32,000 nt of DNA from a bacterium (GCA_037444445.1 JBBIMK010000006.1:1-32000), one strand, 5' to 3'. Positions 11,604 to 29,050 are shown, counted from the first letter of the stretch. Notes: generated by a model from the sequence alone, not told the origin. Made by a program: numbers and translations.

Positions 11604-11743
11604 TCACATAGATTACGGGATAAACTTCCTTTTGTCAAACACCTGGCTCTTTTTCCTCCTCTGCTTTTAGATTTTCTCTATAAAGAGGGGTATAAAAAAA
11701 TCGTTCAGGGTGGTCAGAATCTCTTGACCCAAGGGATTGAATA

Positions 11744-11867
11744 GCGATTCTGAAAAGTCCTGCGGTGAAAAAGAGGGAAAATGAGCGAAGAAAGCCTGAG
11801 AATTGCCCGGGCGCAGGGGCTCTACTGACTGACTACCCCATACATCCTTCTCTCCTTAACCAATTTG
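11744..11867 (-). repeat. Copy A of a ~125-nt repeat family (inverted relative to copies B and C), upstream of the hdrC-like gene
   Basis: The reverse complement caaattggttaaggagagaaggatgtatggggtagtcagtcagtagagcccctgcgcccgggcaattctcaggctttcttcgctcattttccctctttttcaccgcaggacttttcagaatcgc aligns with 18027-18155 and 20163-20237 at roughly 85-90% identity by eye. Confidence 0.85.
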
Positions 11868-11896
11868 TATGAATAAAGGGAATGTAAAAAAGTCAA
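11868..11896 (-). promoter_or_regulatory. Possible sigma70-type promoter immediately upstream of repeat copy A
   Basis: On the minus strand, TTGACT (11896-11891) is followed by TATTCA/TTCATA at 15-17 nt spacing. This aligns with the much better promoter upstream of copy C. Confidence 0.3.
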
Positions 11897-12092
11897 TCTT
11901 TTTTAGACGGGTTAAGAAACTTGTCGGGACGAGATGCCGATAGAACCTATCGGGATTAAGGAATAATCGGGGTGCCCTTGTTTATGTCATTCAAGACATT
12001 GAGGATTCTCTTCTGGATATTCAGGACTTCTCTGGTGAGAAATTCGGAGGGCAGGGTTCTCATTCGCCATAAGCGTTCGTTCCATGCGAAAC

Positions 12093-12647: not shown

Positions 12648-13202
12648 TCACAGGGATTGCAGAGCCCTCTCGGCATGGGAAAGAATTTTCAAGAAATTGG
12701 AGCGGCGGAACCAGGGCTTCATCGCCATAAACCGCTGGTGAGAGGAAGGAGTAAAAAGAGCAGAGGGCGGTGGGTATTCTTCGTTCTCGGGGTAAAACTT
12801 CAGGGCTTCCTGAACCCCTTCACAGATGGATTGAAGCGCCCGCTTCTGATGAACCTTTTCCTCCATTTTATCCGCCTCTTCCCACCGCTCCATATAATAC
12901 AGCACATAAATCCCCCACATCGTAACATCCAGCAATTCCGAGGGCTCACTGGAAGAGTTCAGAACACCCTCCTTTTCCTTGCCAGAATCCACATCCCCAA
13001 AAGAAGATATGTCAAATTGAAACTCACGACAAGAGTGGCAGACAGCACACTCTGCCAGAAAACAACTCACCGGTGTTCCATCCTTCTGAAGAAACCGAAC
13101 TTCCCTCTGATAAGAATAGTCTCCACCACAGGAACAGGCTTGCATAGCCAGGTAGAGGCGTTCTTCTCTCTCTGAGTGGGCTTTCCTCAGCTGGGCTTCC
13201 AT
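12648..13202 (-). CDS. Hypothetical Cys-rich (zinc-ribbon-like) protein
   Basis: 184-aa ORF lying 16 nt upstream of the thioredoxin-fold gene on the same strand. Cys cluster CSCGG...CFLAECAVCHSC. No family recognised. Confidence 0.5.
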   Translation of the reverse strand: MEAQLRKAHSEREERLYLAMQACSCGGDYSYQREVRFLQKDGTPVSCFLAECAVCHSCREFQFDISSFGDVDSGKEKEGVLNSSSEPSELLDVTMWGIYVLYYMERWEEADKMEEKVHQKRALQSICEGVQEALKFYPENEEYPPPSALFTPSSHQRFMAMKPWFRRSNFLKILSHAERALQSL

Positions 13203-17863: not shown

Positions 17864-18026
17864 AAGACCCCTTCGTCTTCATCTATCCAGGCATCCGAAC
17901 CCTGAAGAGAAGAAATGTTTCAGGGTTATGGGAAATGCGAAAAAATGTAGGGGAGGAGCTTGTCTCCTTCCGTCAGAATAAGCGGGACTCCCGAATTATT
18001 CAGATTGATTTTTTAAAAATATTTCA

Positions 18027-18155
18027 CAATTGGTTGAGGGGACTAAGCGATGTATGGGGTAGGTAGGCAGGCAGTAGAGTCCCTGCGCACGGGCAATTCT
18101 CGGGCTTTCTTCGCTCATTTTCTCTTCTTTTCACTGCAGGACTTTTCAGAACCGC
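18027..18155 (+). repeat. Copy B of the ~125-nt repeat family, about 55 nt upstream of the first subtilase gene
   Basis: caattggttgaggggactaagcgatgtatggggtaggtaggcaggcagtagagtccctgcgcacgggcaattctcgggctttcttcgctcattttctcttcttttcactgcaggacttttcagaaccgc. Full-length match to copy A (reverse complement) and to the first ~75 nt of copy C. Confidence 0.85.
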
Positions 18156-18209
18156 CATGAAATCCCTTGATTTTTCCCACAAAAAATCTTATTATGGAGG
18201 TGATAGGAG

Positions 18210-19562
18210 ATGACGAAAGGTCATCCTTCTTTCTTTTCGTGGTGTCTTCCAGTGAGGGCGGTAGTTCGCTCCACCGCCTTCGGACTTTTTGCTTTCCTAA
18301 CAGCGTGTCTTCTCATATTCTGGAGAACACCTTTATACGCTCAGGAACCTGTAGAACCTTATGTGGCAGACCAGTTAGTTCTTGACTTGTCGCTCCTTTC
18401 CGAGGAGGATCGCGATGCTTTATTTACTCAGTATAACTTGACTCATTTAGATTCAATTCCAGAATGGGGAATGTACCTCGTTCAGACACCGCCTGGTCAA
18501 GCACCGACGCTGAAGGACACCCTTTCTACTGTCGTGGGGGTGACAATAGTAGAGTTAAACTACATTAGAACGCTCTACGATGACTTCCCCCAAGATTTCT
18601 ATTTTCCTTACCAGTGGGGCCTGCATAATACTGCGCAAACCGCTTGTGGGCAACAAGGAACCTTGGATGCAGATGTGGATGCCCCAGAAGCGTGGAGCTG
18701 GAGCACAGGAAGTAACTCTGTTTTAGTGGCAGTATTAGACGCTGGAATTCAAGTAGATCACCCAGATTTAATGGGCAAAATCGCTGGATCCGTGAATTTT
18801 GTTAGCCCTACTTTCAGAGATATAATACTGCCCCGGGGTCATGGCACTCAGGTCGCGGGGATTATTGCCGCGGCGACTGATAACTTTTTCCTCACGGGTT
18901 CATCCTTAACACCGGTGAAGAACTATCTCGGAGTTGCTGGAAGTGACTGGCACGCCAAACTCCTGAATGTAAAGGTCTGCGTAGACACCGGTAGTTGTTA
19001 TGACTGGTATACGGCAAAAGGAATTCAGTGGGCTATAGAGGCTGGAGCGAAAGTTATCAACATGAGTTTTGGTGGAAGGGCCCCATCGGATTTTATGAAC
19101 TACGCTCTTAAAGTAGCAGATGAGCGAGGAGTGACAGCGGTCGCGGCAGCTGGTAACGACCATTCTAACGTGCGTACTTATCCCTGTTCATCGGGGAAGA
19201 CCATCTGTGTGGGTGGCACTGATAATCGCGATGGCTTGTATATCAACTCGAACTGGGGCACGTGGGTGCATGTTGTTGCTCCCGCTTTCTGTATTGCCAC
19301 AACGATAACTAATAACGACTATACTTCTCTTGACTACGCAGATAGCGGAACATCCCTTGCAGCACCTTTTGTTTCTGGCTTGGCGTCACTCATCATCGCG
19401 CGTTATCCAAGTGTGCTTCAATGTCCGTGGTATTATTTAGGATGCACGGATGACGCAGTCCGCAACATTATATTTTATATGGGCGTTGACCCGATTCCTG
19501 GCACAGGCACTTATTGGTGGAAAGGCAGGGTAAATTTTTGGAAGGCATTACGAGGTTATTAA
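18210..19562 (+). CDS. Secreted/anchored subtilisin-like serine protease (peptidase S8) with I9-type propeptide
   Basis: Catalytic motifs VAVLDAGIQVDHPDL (Asp), HGTQVAGIIAA (His), SGTSLAAPFVSGLASL (Ser). Propeptide end VTIVELNYIRT. Hydrophobic N-terminus. GGAGGTG lies 5 nt upstream of the ATG. Confidence 0.9.
   Translation: MTKGHPSFFSWCLPVRAVVRSTAFGLFAFLTACLLIFWRTPLYAQEPVEPYVADQLVLDLSLLSEEDRDALFTQYNLTHLDSIPEWGMYLVQTPPGQAPTLKDTLSTVVGVTIVELNYIRTLYDDFPQDFYFPYQWGLHNTAQTACGQQGTLDADVDAPEAWSWSTGSNSVLVAVLDAGIQVDHPDLMGKIAGSVNFVSPTFRDIILPRGHGTQVAGIIAAATDNFFLTGSSLTPVKNYLGVAGSDWHAKLLNVKVCVDTGSCYDWYTAKGIQWAIEAGAKVINMSFGGRAPSDFMNYALKVADERGVTAVAAAGNDHSNVRTYPCSSGKTICVGGTDNRDGLYINSNWGTWVHVVAPAFCIATTITNNDYTSLDYADSGTSLAAPFVSGLASLIIARYPSVLQCPWYYLGCTDDAVRNIIFYMGVDPIPGTGTYWWKGRVNFWKALRGY
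18227..18293 (+). repeat. Signal-peptide-coding module duplicated at 20324-20389 (about 95% identical by eye)
   Basis: ttctttcttttcgtggtgtcttccagtgagggcggtagttcgctccaccgccttcggactttttgct versus tctttctttttgtggtgtcttccagtgagggcggtagttcgccccaccgccttcggactttttgct. The flanking coding sequence is unrelated. Confidence 0.85.
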
Positions 19563-19590
19563 AAACTTCATAAAAGGGAGGTGTATTAGA

Positions 19591-20112
19591 GTGAATTTTC
19601 CGGCTGGATGGAGGAAAGGCGCACAACTATTCTCAACAGCTATTCTTTTGACAATCGGACTTTACAGCTGCAACTGGGGAGGTGAAGGTGGTGAGGCGGT
19701 TTTTCCACTTTTTGAGTATCATAAATTCCCATCTGATTTGGGATTATCCTTTGAAATAATACCTGATAAGGACCAGTATAAAGAAGGCGAGCAAATCCAA
19801 CTGACCTTACGACTTACTAACCAAACAGTTCAAGGGATAGAACTATCTTACACTCGTGGAAACGAATTTGTGGTCTACATTTTTAACGCTCAAAATCAAG
19901 TTGTGGCAGCAGGATATTGGAATTGCATCGGTGAAAAATGTCCTGCTGTGATCACTATCATTCAAAATGAGACAATTCTTCCAGGTGCATTTTTTGAAAG
20001 AGTCGGAACTGTGAAAAAAAGGTTACTGTCAGGCACATATACAATTCGTGCTGACTCACTTGTGCATCCCGCTGATGGAGGCATCTACATGCCTGTCGTT
20101 ATTGTTCCCTAA
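19591..20112 (+). CDS. Putative lipoprotein, divergent BsuPI-like (intracellular proteinase inhibitor fold) protein
   Basis: GGGAGGTG precedes the GTG start. Signal plus lipobox-like GLYSC. YKEGEQIQLTLRLTNQT...ELSYTRGNEFVVYIFN...LLSGTYTIRAD parallels the clearer BsuPI homologue at 28580-29050 and B. subtilis Ipi (as recalled). Confidence 0.5.
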   Translation: MNFPAGWRKGAQLFSTAILLTIGLYSCNWGGEGGEAVFPLFEYHKFPSDLGLSFEIIPDKDQYKEGEQIQLTLRLTNQTVQGIELSYTRGNEFVVYIFNAQNQVVAAGYWNCIGEKCPAVITIIQNETILPGAFFERVGTVKKRLLSGTYTIRADSLVHPADGGIYMPVVIVP

Positions 20113-20130
20113 TATTTTTGGGAGCAGGTC

Positions 20131-20159
20131 TTGACTTTCTTGAATGAATCCTTTATAAT
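20131..20159 (+). promoter_or_regulatory. Near-consensus sigma70 promoter (TTGACT-17 nt-TATAAT) directly upstream of repeat copy C
   Basis: TTGACT at 20131-20136, a 17-nt spacer, TATAAT at 20154-20159. The predicted transcription start falls at the first bases of the repeat. Confidence 0.55.
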
Positions 20160-20162
20160 CCA

Positions 20163-20237
20163 AAATTGGTTAAGGGAGTAAGCGATGTATAGGTCAGTCA
20201 GTCAGTAGAGCCCCTGCGCCCGGGCAATTCTCAGGCT
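20163..20237 (+). repeat. Copy C (3'-truncated, ~75 nt) of the repeat family, upstream of the subtilase remnant
   Basis: aaattggttaagggagtaagcgatgtataggtcagtcagtcagtagagcccctgcgcccgggcaattctcaggct. Similarity to copies A and B stops at 20237, where a GC-rich hairpin begins. Confidence 0.8.
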
Positions 20238-20240
20238 CAA

Positions 20241-20273
20241 GAAAAAACCTTGCCCCCTTTTCAAGGGGGGCAA
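20241..20273 (-). terminator. Intrinsic-terminator-like hairpin read on the minus strand (8-bp GC-rich stem followed by GGTTTTTTC)
   Basis: Stem 20250-20257 (ttgccccc) pairs with 20266-20273 (gggggcaa), with an 8-nt loop. On the minus strand the T6 run is the complement of 20242-20247. No minus-strand gene lies upstream of it. Confidence 0.35.
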
Positions 20274-20302
20274 AATCTGATAACTTTAAGGAGGGATACG
20301 GG

Positions 20303-20688
20303 ATGACACGAAAGTGTCAAAAATCTTTCTTTTTGTGGTGTCTTCCAGTGAGGGCGGTAGTTCGCCCCACCGCCTTCGGACTTTTTGCTCTGATGTGCTT
20401 GCTCTACCTATCTCAAATCGCGTGGGCAGAAGGATTCCCCTCCTGCCTCACACCGCCAGAGGAAATCGAGGAACATCTTTTTCTGCTCCTCAAGTATCAG
20501 CGCTGGCTCACTTGCTGAAAAGCATCCATCCAGATTGGCTGCCGGGCCCCATTACTCAGCGGATTATGCAAATCTCAGAGCCATATCCAGCCTCGTGCGG
20601 TGAGTTCTCCCTACCAAGGGGTAAAATTGATTTTTGCCGTGCAGTTTGGGAAGATTCCCTGTGGCCTACGCACTGTCAGACTCCATGA
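20303..20688 (+). pseudogene. Decayed subtilase (S8) gene: intact RBS, signal peptide and C-terminal Ser-motif region, but the Asp/His core is deleted and the two parts are in different frames
   Basis: Frame 2 from ATG 20303 gives MTRKCQKSFFLWCLPVRAVVRPTAFGLFALMCLLYLSQIAWA-EG..., stopping at 20518. Frame 1 gives ...GNRGTSFSAPQVSALAHLLKSIHPDW...GKIDFCRAV, stopping at 20686-20688. No Asp or His catalytic motifs are present. Confidence 0.75.
20324..20389 (+). repeat. Second copy of the signal-peptide-coding module (see 18227-18293)
   Basis: Near-identical 66 nt, including a conserved 9-bp hairpin (gagggcggt / accgccttc). Confidence 0.85.
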
Positions 20689-20816
20689 AGGAAAGAGCTC
20701 CCTTCGTTGTAACTTTTATGACCATTGGTATTGTTATCTCTCTGATGTTAGCCCTTCTTTCTTACTTTTATCCAATTCTAAAGGCATGGCGAATCTGGTA
20801 TTTAACACATTTATGA
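20685..20816 (+). CDS. Candidate 43-aa single-TM mini-protein (P1)
   Basis: MKERAPFVVTFMTIGIVISLMLALLSYFYPILKAWRIWYLTHL. ATGA overlap with the stop of the subtilase remnant. No obvious SD. Could instead be a fragment of a decayed membrane-protein gene. Confidence 0.3.
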   Translation: MKERAPFVVTFMTIGIVISLMLALLSYFYPILKAWRIWYLTHL

Positions 20817-20947
20817 AGCACTTGACTGCTCTCTTTCTTATTGGCGCTACCTATTTCTTTCTTACAATAGATTTCTTGCTTTCTCTATTGCTCTTGTTGA
20901 TGATTCTTGGAAAATACCCCCTTATGCGGGTCCTCACAGGAGGTTAA
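20813..20947 (+). CDS. Candidate 44-aa single-TM mini-protein (P2)
   Basis: MKHLTALFLIGATYFFLTIDFLLSLLLLLMILGKYPLMRVLTGG. ATGA overlap with the P1 stop. An alternative ATG lies at 20786. Confidence 0.3.
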   Translation: MKHLTALFLIGATYFFLTIDFLLSLLLLLMILGKYPLMRVLTGG

Positions 20948-20950
20948 GAT

Positions 20951-21097
20951 ATGAGTTTCCCTGAAAATCAGGGAGAAAACATCTCTACGCGGGCTTTTCA
21001 TCTCCTGCTCTTGCTGATGGCTCTTTTTCTGAGTTTACTATTTAACATTTTCTGGCTTTCAGATTTTTTCTACTACCTATTTCCCACCTTATTATAA
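20951..21097 (+). CDS. Candidate 48-aa single-TM mini-protein (P3)
   Basis: MSFPENQGENISTRAFHLLLLLMALFLSLLFNIFWLSDFFYYLFPTLL. AGGAGG at 20937-20942 lies 8 nt upstream of the ATG. Same frame as P2, separated by a single TAA. Below the 60-aa cutoff of the ORF track. Confidence 0.35.
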   Translation: MSFPENQGENISTRAFHLLLLLMALFLSLLFNIFWLSDFFYYLFPTLL

Positions 21098-21098
21098 C

Positions 21099-21224
21099 AT
21101 GATGACTTGGCGAGGCATTTTTTTATTGTTATGGATTGCTCTGATACTCTCTCTCATCCTGAATTTATTAGGGTTTCAATTTTATATCATCCAGGGGTAT
21201 TTGAAAGTGACCTGGCTCGCTTAA
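21099..21224 (+). CDS. Candidate 41-aa single-TM mini-protein (P4)
   Basis: MMTWRGIFLLLWIALILSLILNLLGFQFYIIQGYLKVTWLA. Starts 1 nt after the P3 stop. Below the ORF-track cutoff. Confidence 0.3.
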   Translation: MMTWRGIFLLLWIALILSLILNLLGFQFYIIQGYLKVTWLA

Positions 21225-21267
21225 AAAATATGAACGATTTTATGGGGAAGCAGGTAATTAAGAAGAT

Positions 21268-22041
21268 ATGGTAAAGTTAATCATAAAAATATTACTTATT
21301 TTTATTATTCTATTATTCGTTATTACCTCCATATTAGAATTCTTTTCAAGTGTATGGGGAGTAAAAATCCAGAACCCCTTCATACCGGGAGGTTTCAGGA
21401 ACATTTATAATAGAATCCGATATTTTTTAGCCCTGAATACAGGTGGAAAGTTTCTTTTGATATTCACGGGATTTCTAATATTAATCCTTTATTCATTATT
21501 TTTCAAGCCGTTTCACTACAACACTGAAATTCTTTTAGCAGTTGGACCCTTTCCGGTATTCTCACAGTTGTTATTATATCTTGATTATACAAGGCGTGGG
21601 TTATACAGGCGGAATAGAGAGTATTCTACCTGTGACGCCTGTTTCCAGAATCTGGATAAAAGGGTGTGGAAGTTCCTGGGGCTCCCTATGGTAATCACGG
21701 CAAGTATCGTAGGAAGTATTGGAATTGCGCGTTCTTATCCTCCCCAGGTGGCGGTTCTTTCCGGCATAATCTTTTTATTATTTGCCGTATGGCTGGGGGC
21801 GAGTTCTGCTTATACGCCCACTGAGCATCTAATACGATGGAGTGGAATCCTCCTACTCTGGATGGGTGTTGCTCTATATTTGCAATATTTTACCTATATG
21901 ACTCAGTATCATCCAGAATGGTTGAACAGAAGTCGCTGGATTACCGGGATTCTGTTTCTGCTGAATCTCATTTTTGTAGCACTTTCAGTCATCAAAGGTA
22001 GAAGAATAGAGCATTTAGAGTCAGAGTTAAAAAAGAATTAA
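21268..22041 (+). CDS. Hypothetical polytopic membrane protein (about 6-7 TM) in a very AT-rich segment
   Basis: 257-aa ORF with repeated hydrophobic segments (LLIFIILLFVITSIL, FLLIFTGFLILILYSLFF, VLSGIIFLLFAVWLG, ILLLWMGVALYL, ITGILFLLNLIFVALSVI). No family recognised. Confidence 0.55.
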   Translation: MVKLIIKILLIFIILLFVITSILEFFSSVWGVKIQNPFIPGGFRNIYNRIRYFLALNTGGKFLLIFTGFLILILYSLFFKPFHYNTEILLAVGPFPVFSQLLLYLDYTRRGLYRRNREYSTCDACFQNLDKRVWKFLGLPMVITASIVGSIGIARSYPPQVAVLSGIIFLLFAVWLGASSAYTPTEHLIRWSGILLLWMGVALYLQYFTYMTQYHPEWLNRSRWITGILFLLNLIFVALSVIKGRRIEHLESELKKN

Positions 22042-22085
22042 TGTATCACCTGGTTAGGGTCTATTGACTCAAAAAGTAGAATGGC

Positions 22086-27120: not shown

Positions 27121-28404
27121 ATGAGGAGAGGTGATGAAAAAGTGAAAAATTTGTTCAGGGGTGTGATTGTAGCAGTTTTTCTCGGAATAGGTATTTTGTT
27201 TTTTACGAGTTGTGGGGAGCAGGGAAATTTCTCGGAAAGTAACCTGCCGGAAATAGAAGAAATGGGTCCTGCAGGGATTATCGGGCCTCCACAGCCTTAC
27301 CTTCCCGATGAGGTTCTGGTAAAGTTCAAAGAGGAGGTTTCCGGTCGAATTCAGGAGGCTCTTTTCCAGCGGCTGGGCGCCGAGAAATTGGAAGAAATTC
27401 CTGCCATCGGAACCCTGCGATTAAAAATTCCAGCAGGAAAAGTGGAATCTCTGGTAAGGGAGTTGATGCAACAGCCTGGCGTGGAATATGCGGAGCCCAA
27501 TTACACCCGCCAGGCATTCCTGACACCCAATGATACTTATTGGAGCCTCCAATGGGGCTTGAATAACACCGGGCAATCCAGTTCCTGCTTTCCCGCCGGC
27601 ACAGCGGATGCGGATATTGACGGTCCAGAAGCGTGGAACATCACGACGGGCTCTTCCAGTGTGAAAATTGCCATTCTGGATACCGGCATACAGGCAAACC
27701 ATCCCGACCTGTCGGGCAAGGTGGTTGCCGCGAAGAGTTTTGTAGGCGGAAACCCAAATGATGGAAATGGGCACGGAACCCATGTGGCAGGCATTGCCTC
27801 CGCCATCACCAACAACGCCAGGGGGGTGGCGGGAACCTCCTGGGCATCGGTTCTGATGAATGGGAAAGTTCTGACTAACGCTGGCTATGGCTCCGCCTCT
27901 TCTTCCGCCAACGGAATCATCTGGGCGGCCGATAACGGCGCGAAAGTGATTAATATGAGTTATGGCTCTTCTTCCGCTTCTACCACGGAGCAAAATGCCG
28001 TCAATTACGCATGGAATAAGGGGGTTGTGCTGGTAGCCGCCGCTGGCAACAGCAACAGTTCTTCCAAACTTTACCCGGCTGCCTATACGAATGTCATCGC
28101 CGTCGCCGCTACTACGAACACGGATGTGAAAGCCTCCTTCTCCAACTACGGCAACTGGGTTCATGTGGCCGCTCCCGGATATTGCATCGCTTCCACTTAT
28201 AAAAATAATGGTTATGCCTGGGCAAGTGGAACCTCTATGTCTTCTCCTTTTACCGCCGGTGAAGCTGCCCTCATTTTCGCCCAATTTCCGTCTTACACCA
28301 ACGCACAGGTTCGCGACAAAATTTTCGCATCCGTGGATGCCATCTCTGGAACGGGCACCTACTGGGTATACGGTCGCATCAACCTTCATAAAGCAGTGCA
28401 ATAG
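27121..28404 (+). CDS. Subtilisin-like serine protease (peptidase S8) with I9 propeptide; probable lipoprotein
   Basis: Signal with a Cys (ILFFTSCGEQG). Propeptide VLVKFKEE...VEYAEPNY. Triad motifs IAILDTGIQANHPDL, HGTHVAGIASA, SGTSMSSPFTAGEAAL. Confidence 0.9.
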   Translation: MRRGDEKVKNLFRGVIVAVFLGIGILFFTSCGEQGNFSESNLPEIEEMGPAGIIGPPQPYLPDEVLVKFKEEVSGRIQEALFQRLGAEKLEEIPAIGTLRLKIPAGKVESLVRELMQQPGVEYAEPNYTRQAFLTPNDTYWSLQWGLNNTGQSSSCFPAGTADADIDGPEAWNITTGSSSVKIAILDTGIQANHPDLSGKVVAAKSFVGGNPNDGNGHGTHVAGIASAITNNARGVAGTSWASVLMNGKVLTNAGYGSASSSANGIIWAADNGAKVINMSYGSSSASTTEQNAVNYAWNKGVVLVAAAGNSNSSSKLYPAAYTNVIAVAATTNTDVKASFSNYGNWVHVAAPGYCIASTYKNNGYAWASGTSMSSPFTAGEAALIFAQFPSYTNAQVRDKIFASVDAISGTGTYWVYGRINLHKAVQ

Positions 28405-28579
28405 AAAACCCCACATCTTGCCCCTTTCGCCGGCACATTATCCGTTGATAGGGATGAGGATGCGGTAAAGGTGCCTTGGATAGGAGGAGTCGCTGTGCCT
28501 CCCTGTCCTTCATTGTGAGCAAAAAATACTCTCCCATCAAAGGGGAAGTGATATTCTTTATATCAGGCAGGGATGAGGA

Positions 28580-29050
28580 ATGAAGAACAAAATTTTCTGG
28601 GGTATGATAGGGAGCGTGATCCTGCTTTCCTCAGGAAGGGAGGCTGGTATGAATGGTGAAACAGGCTATCCACCCCTCGCACAAAAATTCGGCATAGAAT
28701 TCACCACGAATAAGCCTGCTTATAATCCAGGAGAAAAAATCCAGATGACGCTGAAAATAACCTGCACAACCTTCACCCCTTTCACTTTTCAATTCAATAG
28801 CGGTCAACGCTACGATTTCACCATTGAAAATGCAAGGGGAGAAGAGGTCTGGCGATGGAGCCGGGATAAGATGTTCATTCAAATACTGGGAGAAGAGAAG
28901 GTCGGAGGTACCCGAAAATCCCTCACCTATCGGGAAGTCTTTCAAGGGAATTTATCCACCGGTGTTTATCGCGTGACCGGACGCCTGACTTCCTCCAACG
29001 CTCCCCTGAGTTCCACGCTGACTTTTTTCGTGAACCCGAGAGGCAAGTAG
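28580..29050 (+). CDS. Secreted BsuPI-family (intracellular proteinase inhibitor Ipi-like) protein
   Basis: Signal peptide MKNKIFWGMIGSVILLSSG. FTFQFNSGQRYDFTIENARGEEVWRWSRDKMFIQILG...LSTGVYRVTGRL parallels B. subtilis Ipi (FQFSTGQKFELVVYD...YRYSKEKMFTQAFQ), as recalled from memory. Confidence 0.7.
   Translation: MKNKIFWGMIGSVILLSSGREAGMNGETGYPPLAQKFGIEFTTNKPAYNPGEKIQMTLKITCTTFTPFTFQFNSGQRYDFTIENARGEEVWRWSRDKMFIQILGEEKVGGTRKSLTYREVFQGNLSTGVYRVTGRLTSSNAPLSSTLTFFVNPRGK

Follow-up and report, generated by a model that had tools for sequence, protein, structure and literature searches.

How do two secreted proteases with unrelated bodies come to share one and the same 5' end? The question is raised by a stretch of bacterial DNA of 32,000 nucleotides (GCA_037444445.1, JBBIMK010000006.1:1-32000; positions 1-32000 of contig C6, here called the window), in which an intact gene of the S8 (subtilase) family, S8a, and the gutted remains of another, S8b, each follow a leader and a signal-peptide segment that are directly repeated. 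A previous examination of this DNA (the sequence-only reading) had seen in it a protease-inhibitor cassette bracketed by two copies of a 5' module and explained by replacement or insertion through it, or by gene conversion of the 5' ends, so that alternative protease bodies could be placed behind one promoter, leader and export signal. The source assembly comprises 2.07 Mb in 51 contigs and is probably a metagenome-assembled genome (MAG). We give a probability of roughly 0.6 to another account, in which the two repeats are adjacent members of one family, a 5' module for expression and export that is specific to this lineage and whose copies were dispersed, and in part made alike, through recombination or gene conversion. 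At least seven copies would head non-homologous exported-protein genes, with one truncated copy before hdrCB, and the module would not behave as a self-contained mobile element.

The repeated 5' ends

Two blocks are shared between the 5' ends of S8a (copy 1) and S8b (copy 2), as delimited by a repeat search and MAFFT gapped alignment. The first is a signal-peptide-coding block of 66 nt on the plus strand, 18228-18293, identical to 20324-20389 at 64 of its 66 positions (97%, a little above the ~95% estimated before). It includes a 9-bp hairpin (18254-18281), and just these two occurrences exist in the whole assembly (E 1e-28 and 5e-26). Both differences (TCG/TTG and TCC/CCC) are non-synonymous, with zero synonymous changes, a pattern that would fit recent homogenisation better than long purifying selection. 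The second block is the leader, previously delimited as 18027-18155 against 20163-20237. Its first half stands, as 18028-18106 and 20163-20237 are 83-86% identical in gapped alignment, with small indels in a tetranucleotide tract (the repeat search returned two pieces of 72-88%); its second half, 18107-18155, has no counterpart in copy 2, where a G+C-rich hairpin (20248-20275, terminator-shaped on the minus strand only) occupies the place of leader part B.

An active cassette system could be read from this arrangement, with the module as recombination target for protease-inhibitor cassettes, either through Campbell-type integration of a circular intermediate or through a dedicated recombinase: direct repeats flank S8a and the BsuPI-like gene that follows it, and homologous recombination could proceed within the 66-nt near-identical block, given its length.

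Module copies across the genome

A search for other genes with the same module and leader, as the sequence-only reading had suggested, was carried out over the whole assembly using BLAST with longer queries, hand alignment and nhmmer. It returned six clear copies (the leader query alone had given four places) and a diverged one, that is, at least seven copies with unrelated cargo, scattered over at least five contigs. In the window, copy 1 (C6:18003, plus strand) lies upstream of S8a, copy 2 (C6:20130, plus strand) upstream of the S8b remnant and copy 3 (C6:11898, minus strand) upstream of hdrC/hdrB-like genes; elsewhere, copy 4 (C5:5427) precedes a cysteine-rich lipoprotein, copy 5 (C4:94441) a 409-aa protein and copy 6 (C10:16131, minus strand) a second S8 remnant. 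The seventh, diverged copy (MKNLTKTNFPSYW.LPVKK...) is situated on C26, before a paralogue of the copy 4 lipoprotein. An eighth, unassembled copy probably lies beyond the end of contig C4, because the last 44 nt of that contig are identical to 17961-18004, the stretch preceding copy 1 (plus strand, including most of a hairpin at 17950-17971). Contig C2 holds weak partial look-alikes. The two repeats of the window are neighbouring members of this family, which also heads non-protease genes, and not a bracket reserved for one cassette.

Complete copies comprise a sigma-70-type -35/-10 pair, leader part A, leader part B (leader length ~180 nt), a GGAGG ribosome-binding site (RBS), the start codon and the first 12-28 codons, which read MTKGHPSFFSW(W/C).PV... 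and encode the long n-region of a signal peptide. Similarity between copies begins at the -35 region and ends at differing points in the coding region, and pairwise identity, at 50-93%, is not uniform. The open reading frame (ORF) of the module is a genuine N-terminus, because in a relative of 96% identity (L051) the copy 4 frame is uninterrupted through MTKGPPPFSSWWNLVGRFSSVPKTLSRMENSGKLLVIIVVISMMVGC (n-region, h-region and lipobox) into the mature lipoprotein.

Promoter-like sites precede individual copies, so that the idea of alternative protease bodies behind a single promoter does not hold. That of copy 2 (TTGACT-17-TATAAT, 20131-20159, plus strand) has 11 of 12 matches and is followed by leader part A (20163-20237, plus strand), whose nearest relative is copy 3 (90%). 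At copy 1 (18005-18027, plus strand), a TTGATT -35 is present and 10 nt before the -10 are absent with respect to the other copies (six-copy alignment); the promoter scan made no call there. Leader part A of copy 1 (18028-18106, plus strand) contains a short upstream ORF from 18050 and a variable tetranucleotide tract (18058-18074). Part B (18107-18195, plus strand), common to copies 3, 4, 5 and the C10 copy and without counterpart in copy 2, contains a second promoter-like site (TTGATT-17-TATTAT, 18167-18195), from which S8a may be expressed, if not by read-through from lutABC. Copy 3 (11733-11912, minus strand), now upstream of hdrC-like and hdrB-like genes, is reduced to promoter and leader parts A and B, being cut at CCCTTG by an 89-nt repeat (11644-11732).

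Each leader opens with a Shine-Dalgarno (SD)-like site and a short ORF (MYG/R/K...), at 18050-18074, 20184-20205 and, on the minus strand, 11820-11846. This ORF crosses 2-4 tetranucleotide units (GGTA/GGCA/GTCA), the number of which varies by copy, and its length ranges from 7 to 40 codons.

Regarding how copies could be exchanged or spread, no recombinase or integrase was found on C6, C5, C4 or C10 (Phage_integrase matches are confined to C13, C36 and C35), and the repeat search found no terminal inverted repeats, att-like sites or target duplications flanking the copies. A transposable element or miniature inverted-repeat transposable element with an outward promoter (Correia-like) does not fit either, as inverted repeats are missing around the copies and the boundaries of the copy 3 insertion, in comparison with L049, a more distant relative, have no target duplication. 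For the cassette system it can be said that the module-led unit on C4 is probably again directly trailed by another module copy; against it stand the missing recombinase and repeats, the promoter-like site of each copy and the 50-93% identity between copies.

Mosaic structure of copy 1

Copy 1 does not have one nearest relative along its length. In leader part A it is 86%, 85%, 81% and 73% identical to copies 2, 3, 4 and 5, respectively; in part B, it is 92-93% identical to copies 4 and 5; in the initiation region, 89-91% to copies 4 and 5 and 70% to copy 2; and over 18246-18293, 98% to copy 2 and 29-48% to copies 4 and 5. Informative sites place it with copy 4 (a copy 4/5-like state) at 49 of 58 up to 18238 and with copy 2 at 30 of 30 from 18245, the best split giving a Fisher value of 7e-16. 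Two junctions are found within ~60 nt: J1 at 18238-18245, inside TCTTTCTTTTCGTGGTG, a motif present in all copies, and J2 at 18293/18294. Since the nearest relative of copy 1 switches from copies 4/5 to copy 2 at J1, recombination or gene conversion of the 5' ends is supported. This part of the sequence-only reading is retained (49 against 9 sites, then 30 against 0), and the cassette system attached to it is not. The module of the S8a-inhibitor operon is chimeric, its promoter, leader and initiation region coming from the copy 4/5 lineage and the next 48-66 nt from the copy 2 (S8b) lineage, with its own sequence after that; S8b was destroyed, afterwards or independently, by an internal deletion of ~1.2 kb.

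Genes behind the module and their decay

S8a (18210-19562, plus strand) encodes an intact secreted thermitase-like subtilase of 450 aa (Peptidase_S8, PF00082, 9.2e-38) with a Fervidolysin-type prodomain, whose translation shows the catalytic motifs in order (Asp VLDAG, His GHGT, Ser GTSLAAP). It is followed at 19591-20112 (plus strand) by a BsuPI-like probable lipoprotein of 173 aa, a putative protease inhibitor, whose match to PF12690 (1.3e-5) is weak but above the curated cut-off (25.5 vs 22.9 bits) and which shares 28% of its residues with the BsuPI protein encoded at 28580-29050. The Pfam matches and visible motifs agree with what had been read between the two copies, an intact S8 protease and a BsuPI-like lipoprotein. 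The closest protein to S8a is P0002 (56%, the alignment spanning the whole domain); many proteins of Patescibacteria reach ~40%, and the window's second S8 (27121-28404) reaches 41%. S8a homologues have unrelated N-termini, similarity beginning at AQEPVEPYVAD (~18336). A horizontal origin of S8a from Patescibacteria is unsupported beyond those ~40% matches, the best match (56%) being located on a high-GC contig without BsuPI.

The gutted S8b (20303-20688, plus strand) comprises a signal peptide plus ~25 residues (20303-20518), an out-of-frame join at ~20453-20478 and the last ~75 residues with the catalytic Ser. The frame 20314-20688 carries GTSFSAPQVS and covers only positions 237-271 of the Peptidase_S8 profile (16.3 bits, below the cut-off of 21.8), so the catalytic domain is incomplete, with neither Asp nor His. 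A search with the last 84 residues against 1.84 billion representatives found P0121, an S8 of a different MAG (74% over 72 aa, with the same C-terminal end), and the same type of search with the C10 remnant found P0129. P0121 is 39% identical to P0129 and 23% to S8a. These searches, together with Pfam, uphold three earlier observations: after copy 2, in different frames, another S8 has kept only its signal peptide and the end with the catalytic Ser; the two proteases are not recent duplicates, as the remnant is 74% identical to P0121 and P0121 just 23% to S8a; and the same 5' module heads non-homologous protease bodies.

Both genes are S8 genes in tandem on the same strand, and ordinary paralogues, one S8 gene duplicated and its similarity kept at the 5' ends only, would be one reading of such an arrangement. 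It is hardly credible here: the remnant's assignment to the P0121/P0129 subfamily, P0121 being its closest intact relative, and the 23% between P0121 and S8a place the proteases in different S8 subfamilies, S8a has its own orthologue group with unrelated N-termini, and the module also heads non-protease genes elsewhere in the genome. The sequence-only reading had named ordinary tandem paralogy as one outcome that would overturn its proposal, and this outcome is refuted if the subfamily assignment of the remnant is right.

Since a full-length member of the second subfamily in L031 has ~545 aa, S8b lacks ~1.2 kb, among it the Asp and His regions; in its upstream frame, the GF.SC.PP...EE region can still be recognised. 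A related-locus search with P0121 returned distant S8 genes only. In the C10 remnant the junction is a different one, inside the signal peptide, and the partner gene still follows, as it does after the intact gene in L031; because the junctions differ, S8b and the C10 remnant are two independent deletions. The second protease was not lost through the insertion itself, but by an internal deletion of ~1.2 kb, with a second, independently gutted paralogue on C10. The C10 segment itself (C10:14201-16314, 2.1 kb) is absent in L042 and holds a diverged module copy, the second gutted S8, of the same subfamily (ETSFATPQVSG...), and a 300-aa partner gene, syntenic with the intact pair in the JGI contig L031.

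The remaining cargo is diverse. Copy 4 leads into a gene for a cysteine-rich exported protein, of a multi-copy family that comes with a polytopic membrane partner, and copy 5 into a 409-aa protein of no convincing family. After the signal peptide of the latter, a glycine-rich block (LNAGGAGGAPGAGGGFESMSGGG) is located at C4:94800-94900; it recurs in a paralogue of 34% identity at the very start of C22 and, in L031 (9430-9500), after the signal peptide of the intact S8, and may be a second shared N-terminal module.

Decay is widespread among the module-led genes, copy 1 being the sole copy that leads into an intact gene. Copies 2 and 6 are followed by large deletions and copy 3 is cut before the RBS; copy 4 (C5:5639-6364) has TAA at codon 34 where the 96% relative has TTA, and that relative's own copy 4 (L051) has a 1-nt deletion at ~codon 107; copy 5 is frameshifted near codon 50, and the C26 copy has a stop and a frameshift. 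Because the copy 4 lesions are independent in two strains, they argue for a real, continuing inactivation, not for a programmed feature. Programmed N-terminal lesions (upstream-ORF coupling or recoding) were considered, and are weakened by the copy 4 gene of the 96% relative, which is continuous at the TAA position and has a different, mid-gene lesion.

A lineage-specific island at a synteny breakpoint

Comparisons were made with public assemblies of close relatives: a ~96% set (L038, L045, L046 and L051; Logan assembly, SRR11582170) and a ~84% relative (range 82-85%; L042-L044, L049 and L050; three JGI samples). In the ~84% relative, synteny stops at the lutC stop codon, 17865 (L049, L050), and restarts at 22062 (L042-L044). 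S8a, the island BsuPI protein and a 257-aa membrane protein are singletons among ~15 billion proteins, unlike LutB, ACP, RNase III and the second S8, for which the 96% and ~84% relatives have orthologues. Because of this loss of synteny and these singletons, 17866-22061 (plus strand) is a lineage-specific island of 4.2 kb at a rearrangement junction, between lutC and the rpmF promoter. It is composed of the two module-led units and an AT-rich tail (20689-22041, plus strand) with hydrophobic mini-ORFs and the 257-aa protein, which is polytopic and of no known family. The island is likely absent from the 96% relative as well. The segment proposed as variable, 18.1-20.2 kb, is indeed missing from relatives, the variable unit being the larger 17866-22061. 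Its GC content is 43.8%, against 49.3% for the window and 51.7% for lutABC; within it, S8a has 48.0%, BsuPI 41.6% and 20689-22041 37.8%, so that a clearly lower GC is confined to the inhibitor gene and the tail, and does not extend to S8a.

The ~84% relative lacks the module at three loci. Besides the island, L049 has ~50 nt instead of window positions 11646-12027 (382 nt), so copy 3 and the 89-nt repeat are an insertion between an AhpC-like gene and hdrC; and ~100 nt are found in place of C10:14201-16314, with copy 6, the S8 remnant and its partner. In the 96% relative, the module is present at the copy 3 locus (L045 ends 12 nt into leader part A) and at copy 4 (L051).

These comparisons bear on the cassette system once more. 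It would account for S8a and the BsuPI gene having no close orthologue anywhere, including the samples with the 96% and 84% relatives; against it, what varies between relatives is the entire 4.2-kb island, and S8b was lost by internal deletion and not by displacement. On balance we consider an active cassette system unlikely, and retain the reading of a re-used 5' module.

They also bear on the chance that the near-identical 5' ends or the gutted gene are artefacts of repeat collapse or chimeric joins. Among the 51 contigs several end inside repeats, and the fragmented assembly of the 96% relative also breaks at module positions. An artefact is nonetheless improbable, as the two copies differ in sequence and have unique flanks on both sides, the join between copy 3 and the 89-nt repeat shares 3 nt, far below an assembler k-mer, the differently truncated S8 remnant on C10 keeps its partner synteny as in L031, and the independent assembly of the 96% relative has the module at the copy 3 and copy 4 loci.

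Outside this lineage, searches were negative: the module, lutB and a close S8b were all not found in seven same-class relatives of GTDB; module DNA was not found in 40 related or other genomes; three pattern scans, two over metagenome contigs and one over species genomes, were empty or yielded five chance matches without flanking similarity; and S8a residues 1-42 returned the query alone from 5.8 billion proteins.

Several further observations concern the breakpoints and their surroundings. In three JGI samples (~84%), a homologue of the beta-propeller gene C10:..24825 is joined straight to the rpmF promoter, and in the ~84% relatives lutC is followed by genes that in this genome sit on C3; with joins altered at 17865/17866 and 22042-22062, this genome is therefore rearranged there, and the 4.2-kb island fills the junction. 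At the right breakpoint, before rpmF, window positions 22042-22082 belong to a second promoter-bearing repeat family (TGTATCACCYGGTYAGG..TATTGACTCAAAAAGTAGAAT), also present near the end of C1, at C5:82488, C5:93782, the start of C7 and C27:19549; L046 (96%) ends in it. The repeat that cuts copy 3 is an 89-92-nt element (GTATTGGGTCAAGAGATTCTGACC...AAAAAGAGCCA) with 100% identical resolved copies at 11644-11732 (minus strand) and C1:261333-261424, and C39, C44 and C15 end exactly 54 nt into it. It contains a terminator-like hairpin and a T-run, then an SD-like GAGGAGG, and stands upstream of hdrC where copy 3 would have its 3' part; an assembler chimera at this junction is unlikely, given the join of 3 nt only. 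Between FAD-oxidoreductase-like and AhpC-like genes, the minus strand encodes a cysteine-rich ORF of 184 aa (12648-13202), which L045 (96%) shares; in L049 (84%) just ~70 nt stand in that place. Finally, a second S8 (427 aa) and BsuPI (156 aa, 1e-22) pair is located at 27121-29050, without the module. Its gene order is kept in the 96% and 82% relatives (97% protein identity to P0003); thus, the S8-inhibitor pairing is ancestral in the lineage, and the island pair is extra.

The initiation region

The initiation region of copy 1 (18196-18245, plus strand) has the SD GGAGG, a hairpin GATGAC-GAAAG-GTCATC (18209-18225) and a pyrimidine tract (18225-18239) that can pair with the SD; that of copy 2 with its 66-nt block (20288-20389, plus strand) has the SD AAGGAGGGAT, a hairpin TGACAC-GAAA-GTGTCA (20304-20319) and a pyrimidine tract. 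In copies 1 and 2 and the C26 copy, pairing is possible between the purine-rich SD region and codons 6-12, where the pyrimidine tract lies; the inner hairpin encloses the start codon, and the region folds at -19.1, -14.8 and -15.1 kcal/mol, respectively (z -3.2, -2.6 and -2.8). The inner stem takes three sequences (GATGAC/GTCATC, TGACAC/GTGTCA and GTGAGAT/ATCTCAC) around the same GAAA(R) loop, and the encoded residues differ across the variants (TKGH, TRKCQ and KNLT). Pairing is 100%; in 5 of the 6 pairs both partners have changed, and none of 500 shuffles matched the score. Several copies have a second hairpin at codons 15-24. The GATGAC/GTCATC start-codon stem of copies 1, 4 and 5 is also found at C2:78443-78563, where an unrelated signal-peptide gene opens GGAGGTGAAGTAAGATGACGAAAAAAGTCATC.

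We infer that the module combines a promoter with a partly occluded initiation region, by which translation would be throttled and the genes behind it co-regulated at a low basal level. A stronger claim would make the leader and early coding region a cis-regulatory RNA, riboswitch- or thermosensor-like, kept by selection and not by recombination. The covarying start-codon hairpin, the possible pairing of the SD with the pyrimidine tract (codons 6-10) in three diverged variants and the second hairpin of several copies speak for it. Whole leaders, on the contrary, fold like shuffles (z 0.02 and -0.74), RNAalifold on the leader gives one 4-bp helix of invariant pairs with nil covariation, and Rfam has no match at the gathering threshold, nor at E up to 5 in 17900-20500, which leads us to reject a riboswitch or other structured-leader RNA. 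Selection would not yield the abrupt change of nearest relative at 18238-18245 either, and a local translational hairpin, compatible with a module spread by recombination, cannot explain 180 nt of leader identity. A cis-regulatory RNA as the whole explanation is thus decidedly unlikely; what lends itself to testing, as a candidate for translational control, is the small start-codon hairpin.

Weighing of the module reading

Several points weigh against a co-regulating module spread by recombination. Common regulation is doubtful for S8a, the sole intact gene, because the upstream promoter of copy 1 is disrupted. Nothing was found that would explain the module's spread, be it terminal repeats, target duplications or a nearby recombinase. 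As for the hairpin, nothing sets apart the initiation folds of copy 4, copy 5 and the C10 copy (z -1.5, -0.7 and +0.5), the relative's copy 4 has a stem mismatch, and the covariation comes from three independent variants registered by hand. Furthermore, signal peptides inherently place purine-rich Lys/Arg codons before pyrimidine-rich Phe/Ser/Leu codons, an asymmetry that favours such pairing and that shuffling destroys. In the mosaic of copy 1, much of the left-side site signal stems from leader part B, which is non-homologous in copy 2 (the initiation region has the same pattern), and neither the direction nor the order of recombination can be derived from six sequences. Neither the module nor its peptide was found outside the lineage, and in a probable MAG of 51 contigs part of the lesions and junctions could be consensus or assembly errors.

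Comparison with known systems

It is common in prokaryotes for unrelated genes to be preceded by highly similar sequences, which have been described as putative mobile promoters (Matus-Garcia, Nijveen and van Passel, 2012; PMC3575422). The definition asks for 80% identity or more across 50 nt or more before the start codon of non-paralogous coding sequences; such promoters show no tie to a known mobile element and have no known mode of spreading (PMC3575422). Copy 1 falls within this definition when compared with copy 4 (89% over 206 nt) and copy 5 (87% over 191 nt), all before genes for unrelated proteins, with the caveat that identity runs ~35-85 nt into the coding region. Copies 1, 4 and 5, which share 88-93% over ~200 nt, are alike in this respect, and copy 3 resembles a pure promoter and leader insertion before hdrCB. 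Unlike putative mobile promoters, the module spans the RBS and the first 12-28 signal-peptide codons, which the published filters would exclude (PMC3575422), its cargo is mostly of exported proteins, and its copies are visibly mosaic.

A second likeness is that of the vsp/vpma loci of Mycoplasma, where the genes are clustered, one promoter serves them and a neighbouring Xer-type recombinase inverts DNA at a site in the 5' untranslated region (UTR) (PMC2268961). As there, the 5' UTR and signal-peptide region are conserved over unrelated mature parts and recombination would have taken place in the 5' region; unlike there, module copies have their own promoter-like sites, lie on at least five contigs and have no recombinase nearby, and most are pseudogenes, not silent alternatives.

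Polymorphic toxin loci of the Rhs/CDI type have a large conserved N-terminal body, a variable C-terminal tip and displaced orphan modules. The locus studied here shares with them a functional effector and a protective protein upstream of a truncated older relic, and a short shared stretch marking the recombination point. Here it is instead just the promoter, leader and signal start that are conserved, the relic is missing its middle and not its 5' end, and what stands in the effector's place is a protease. Lastly, the order of an S8 gene followed by a BsuPI-domain gene is that of subtilase-BsuPI pairs (PF00082 and PF12690), BsuPI being the intracellular protease inhibitor of Bacillus subtilis. 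In the island, by contrast, both proteins have export signals, which would place any inhibition outside the cytoplasm, and the BsuPI match is weak (25.5 bits).

Significance

In its boldest form, the module would be an autonomously propagating expression-and-export adaptor (promoter, translational RNA switch and n-region, the switch being the hairpin around SD and start codon with its conserved GAAA loop) that is inserted before genes, whether resident or newly acquired, and recruits them into one secretion regulon, with the tetranucleotide tract of the upstream ORF as a slippage-prone on/off switch, a proposal that we regard as quite unlikely. The locus is better described as a local instance of known promoter re-use, in a lineage with few sampled genomes, whose mosaic and comparison with relatives are unusually clear, and no finding on the module overturns the current understanding. 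For annotation, it warns that the signal-peptide-only ORFs and C-terminal S8 fragments found here are relics and not small genes, and that contig breaks of this lineage coincide with modules. For the biology of the lineage, module units sit in strain-variable islands and are inactivated repeatedly, and the locus shows, with breakpoints defined to a few bases, how, in an uncultured bacterium, genes for exported proteins are rewired by a re-used promoter, leader and signal start, and not by whole-gene duplication.

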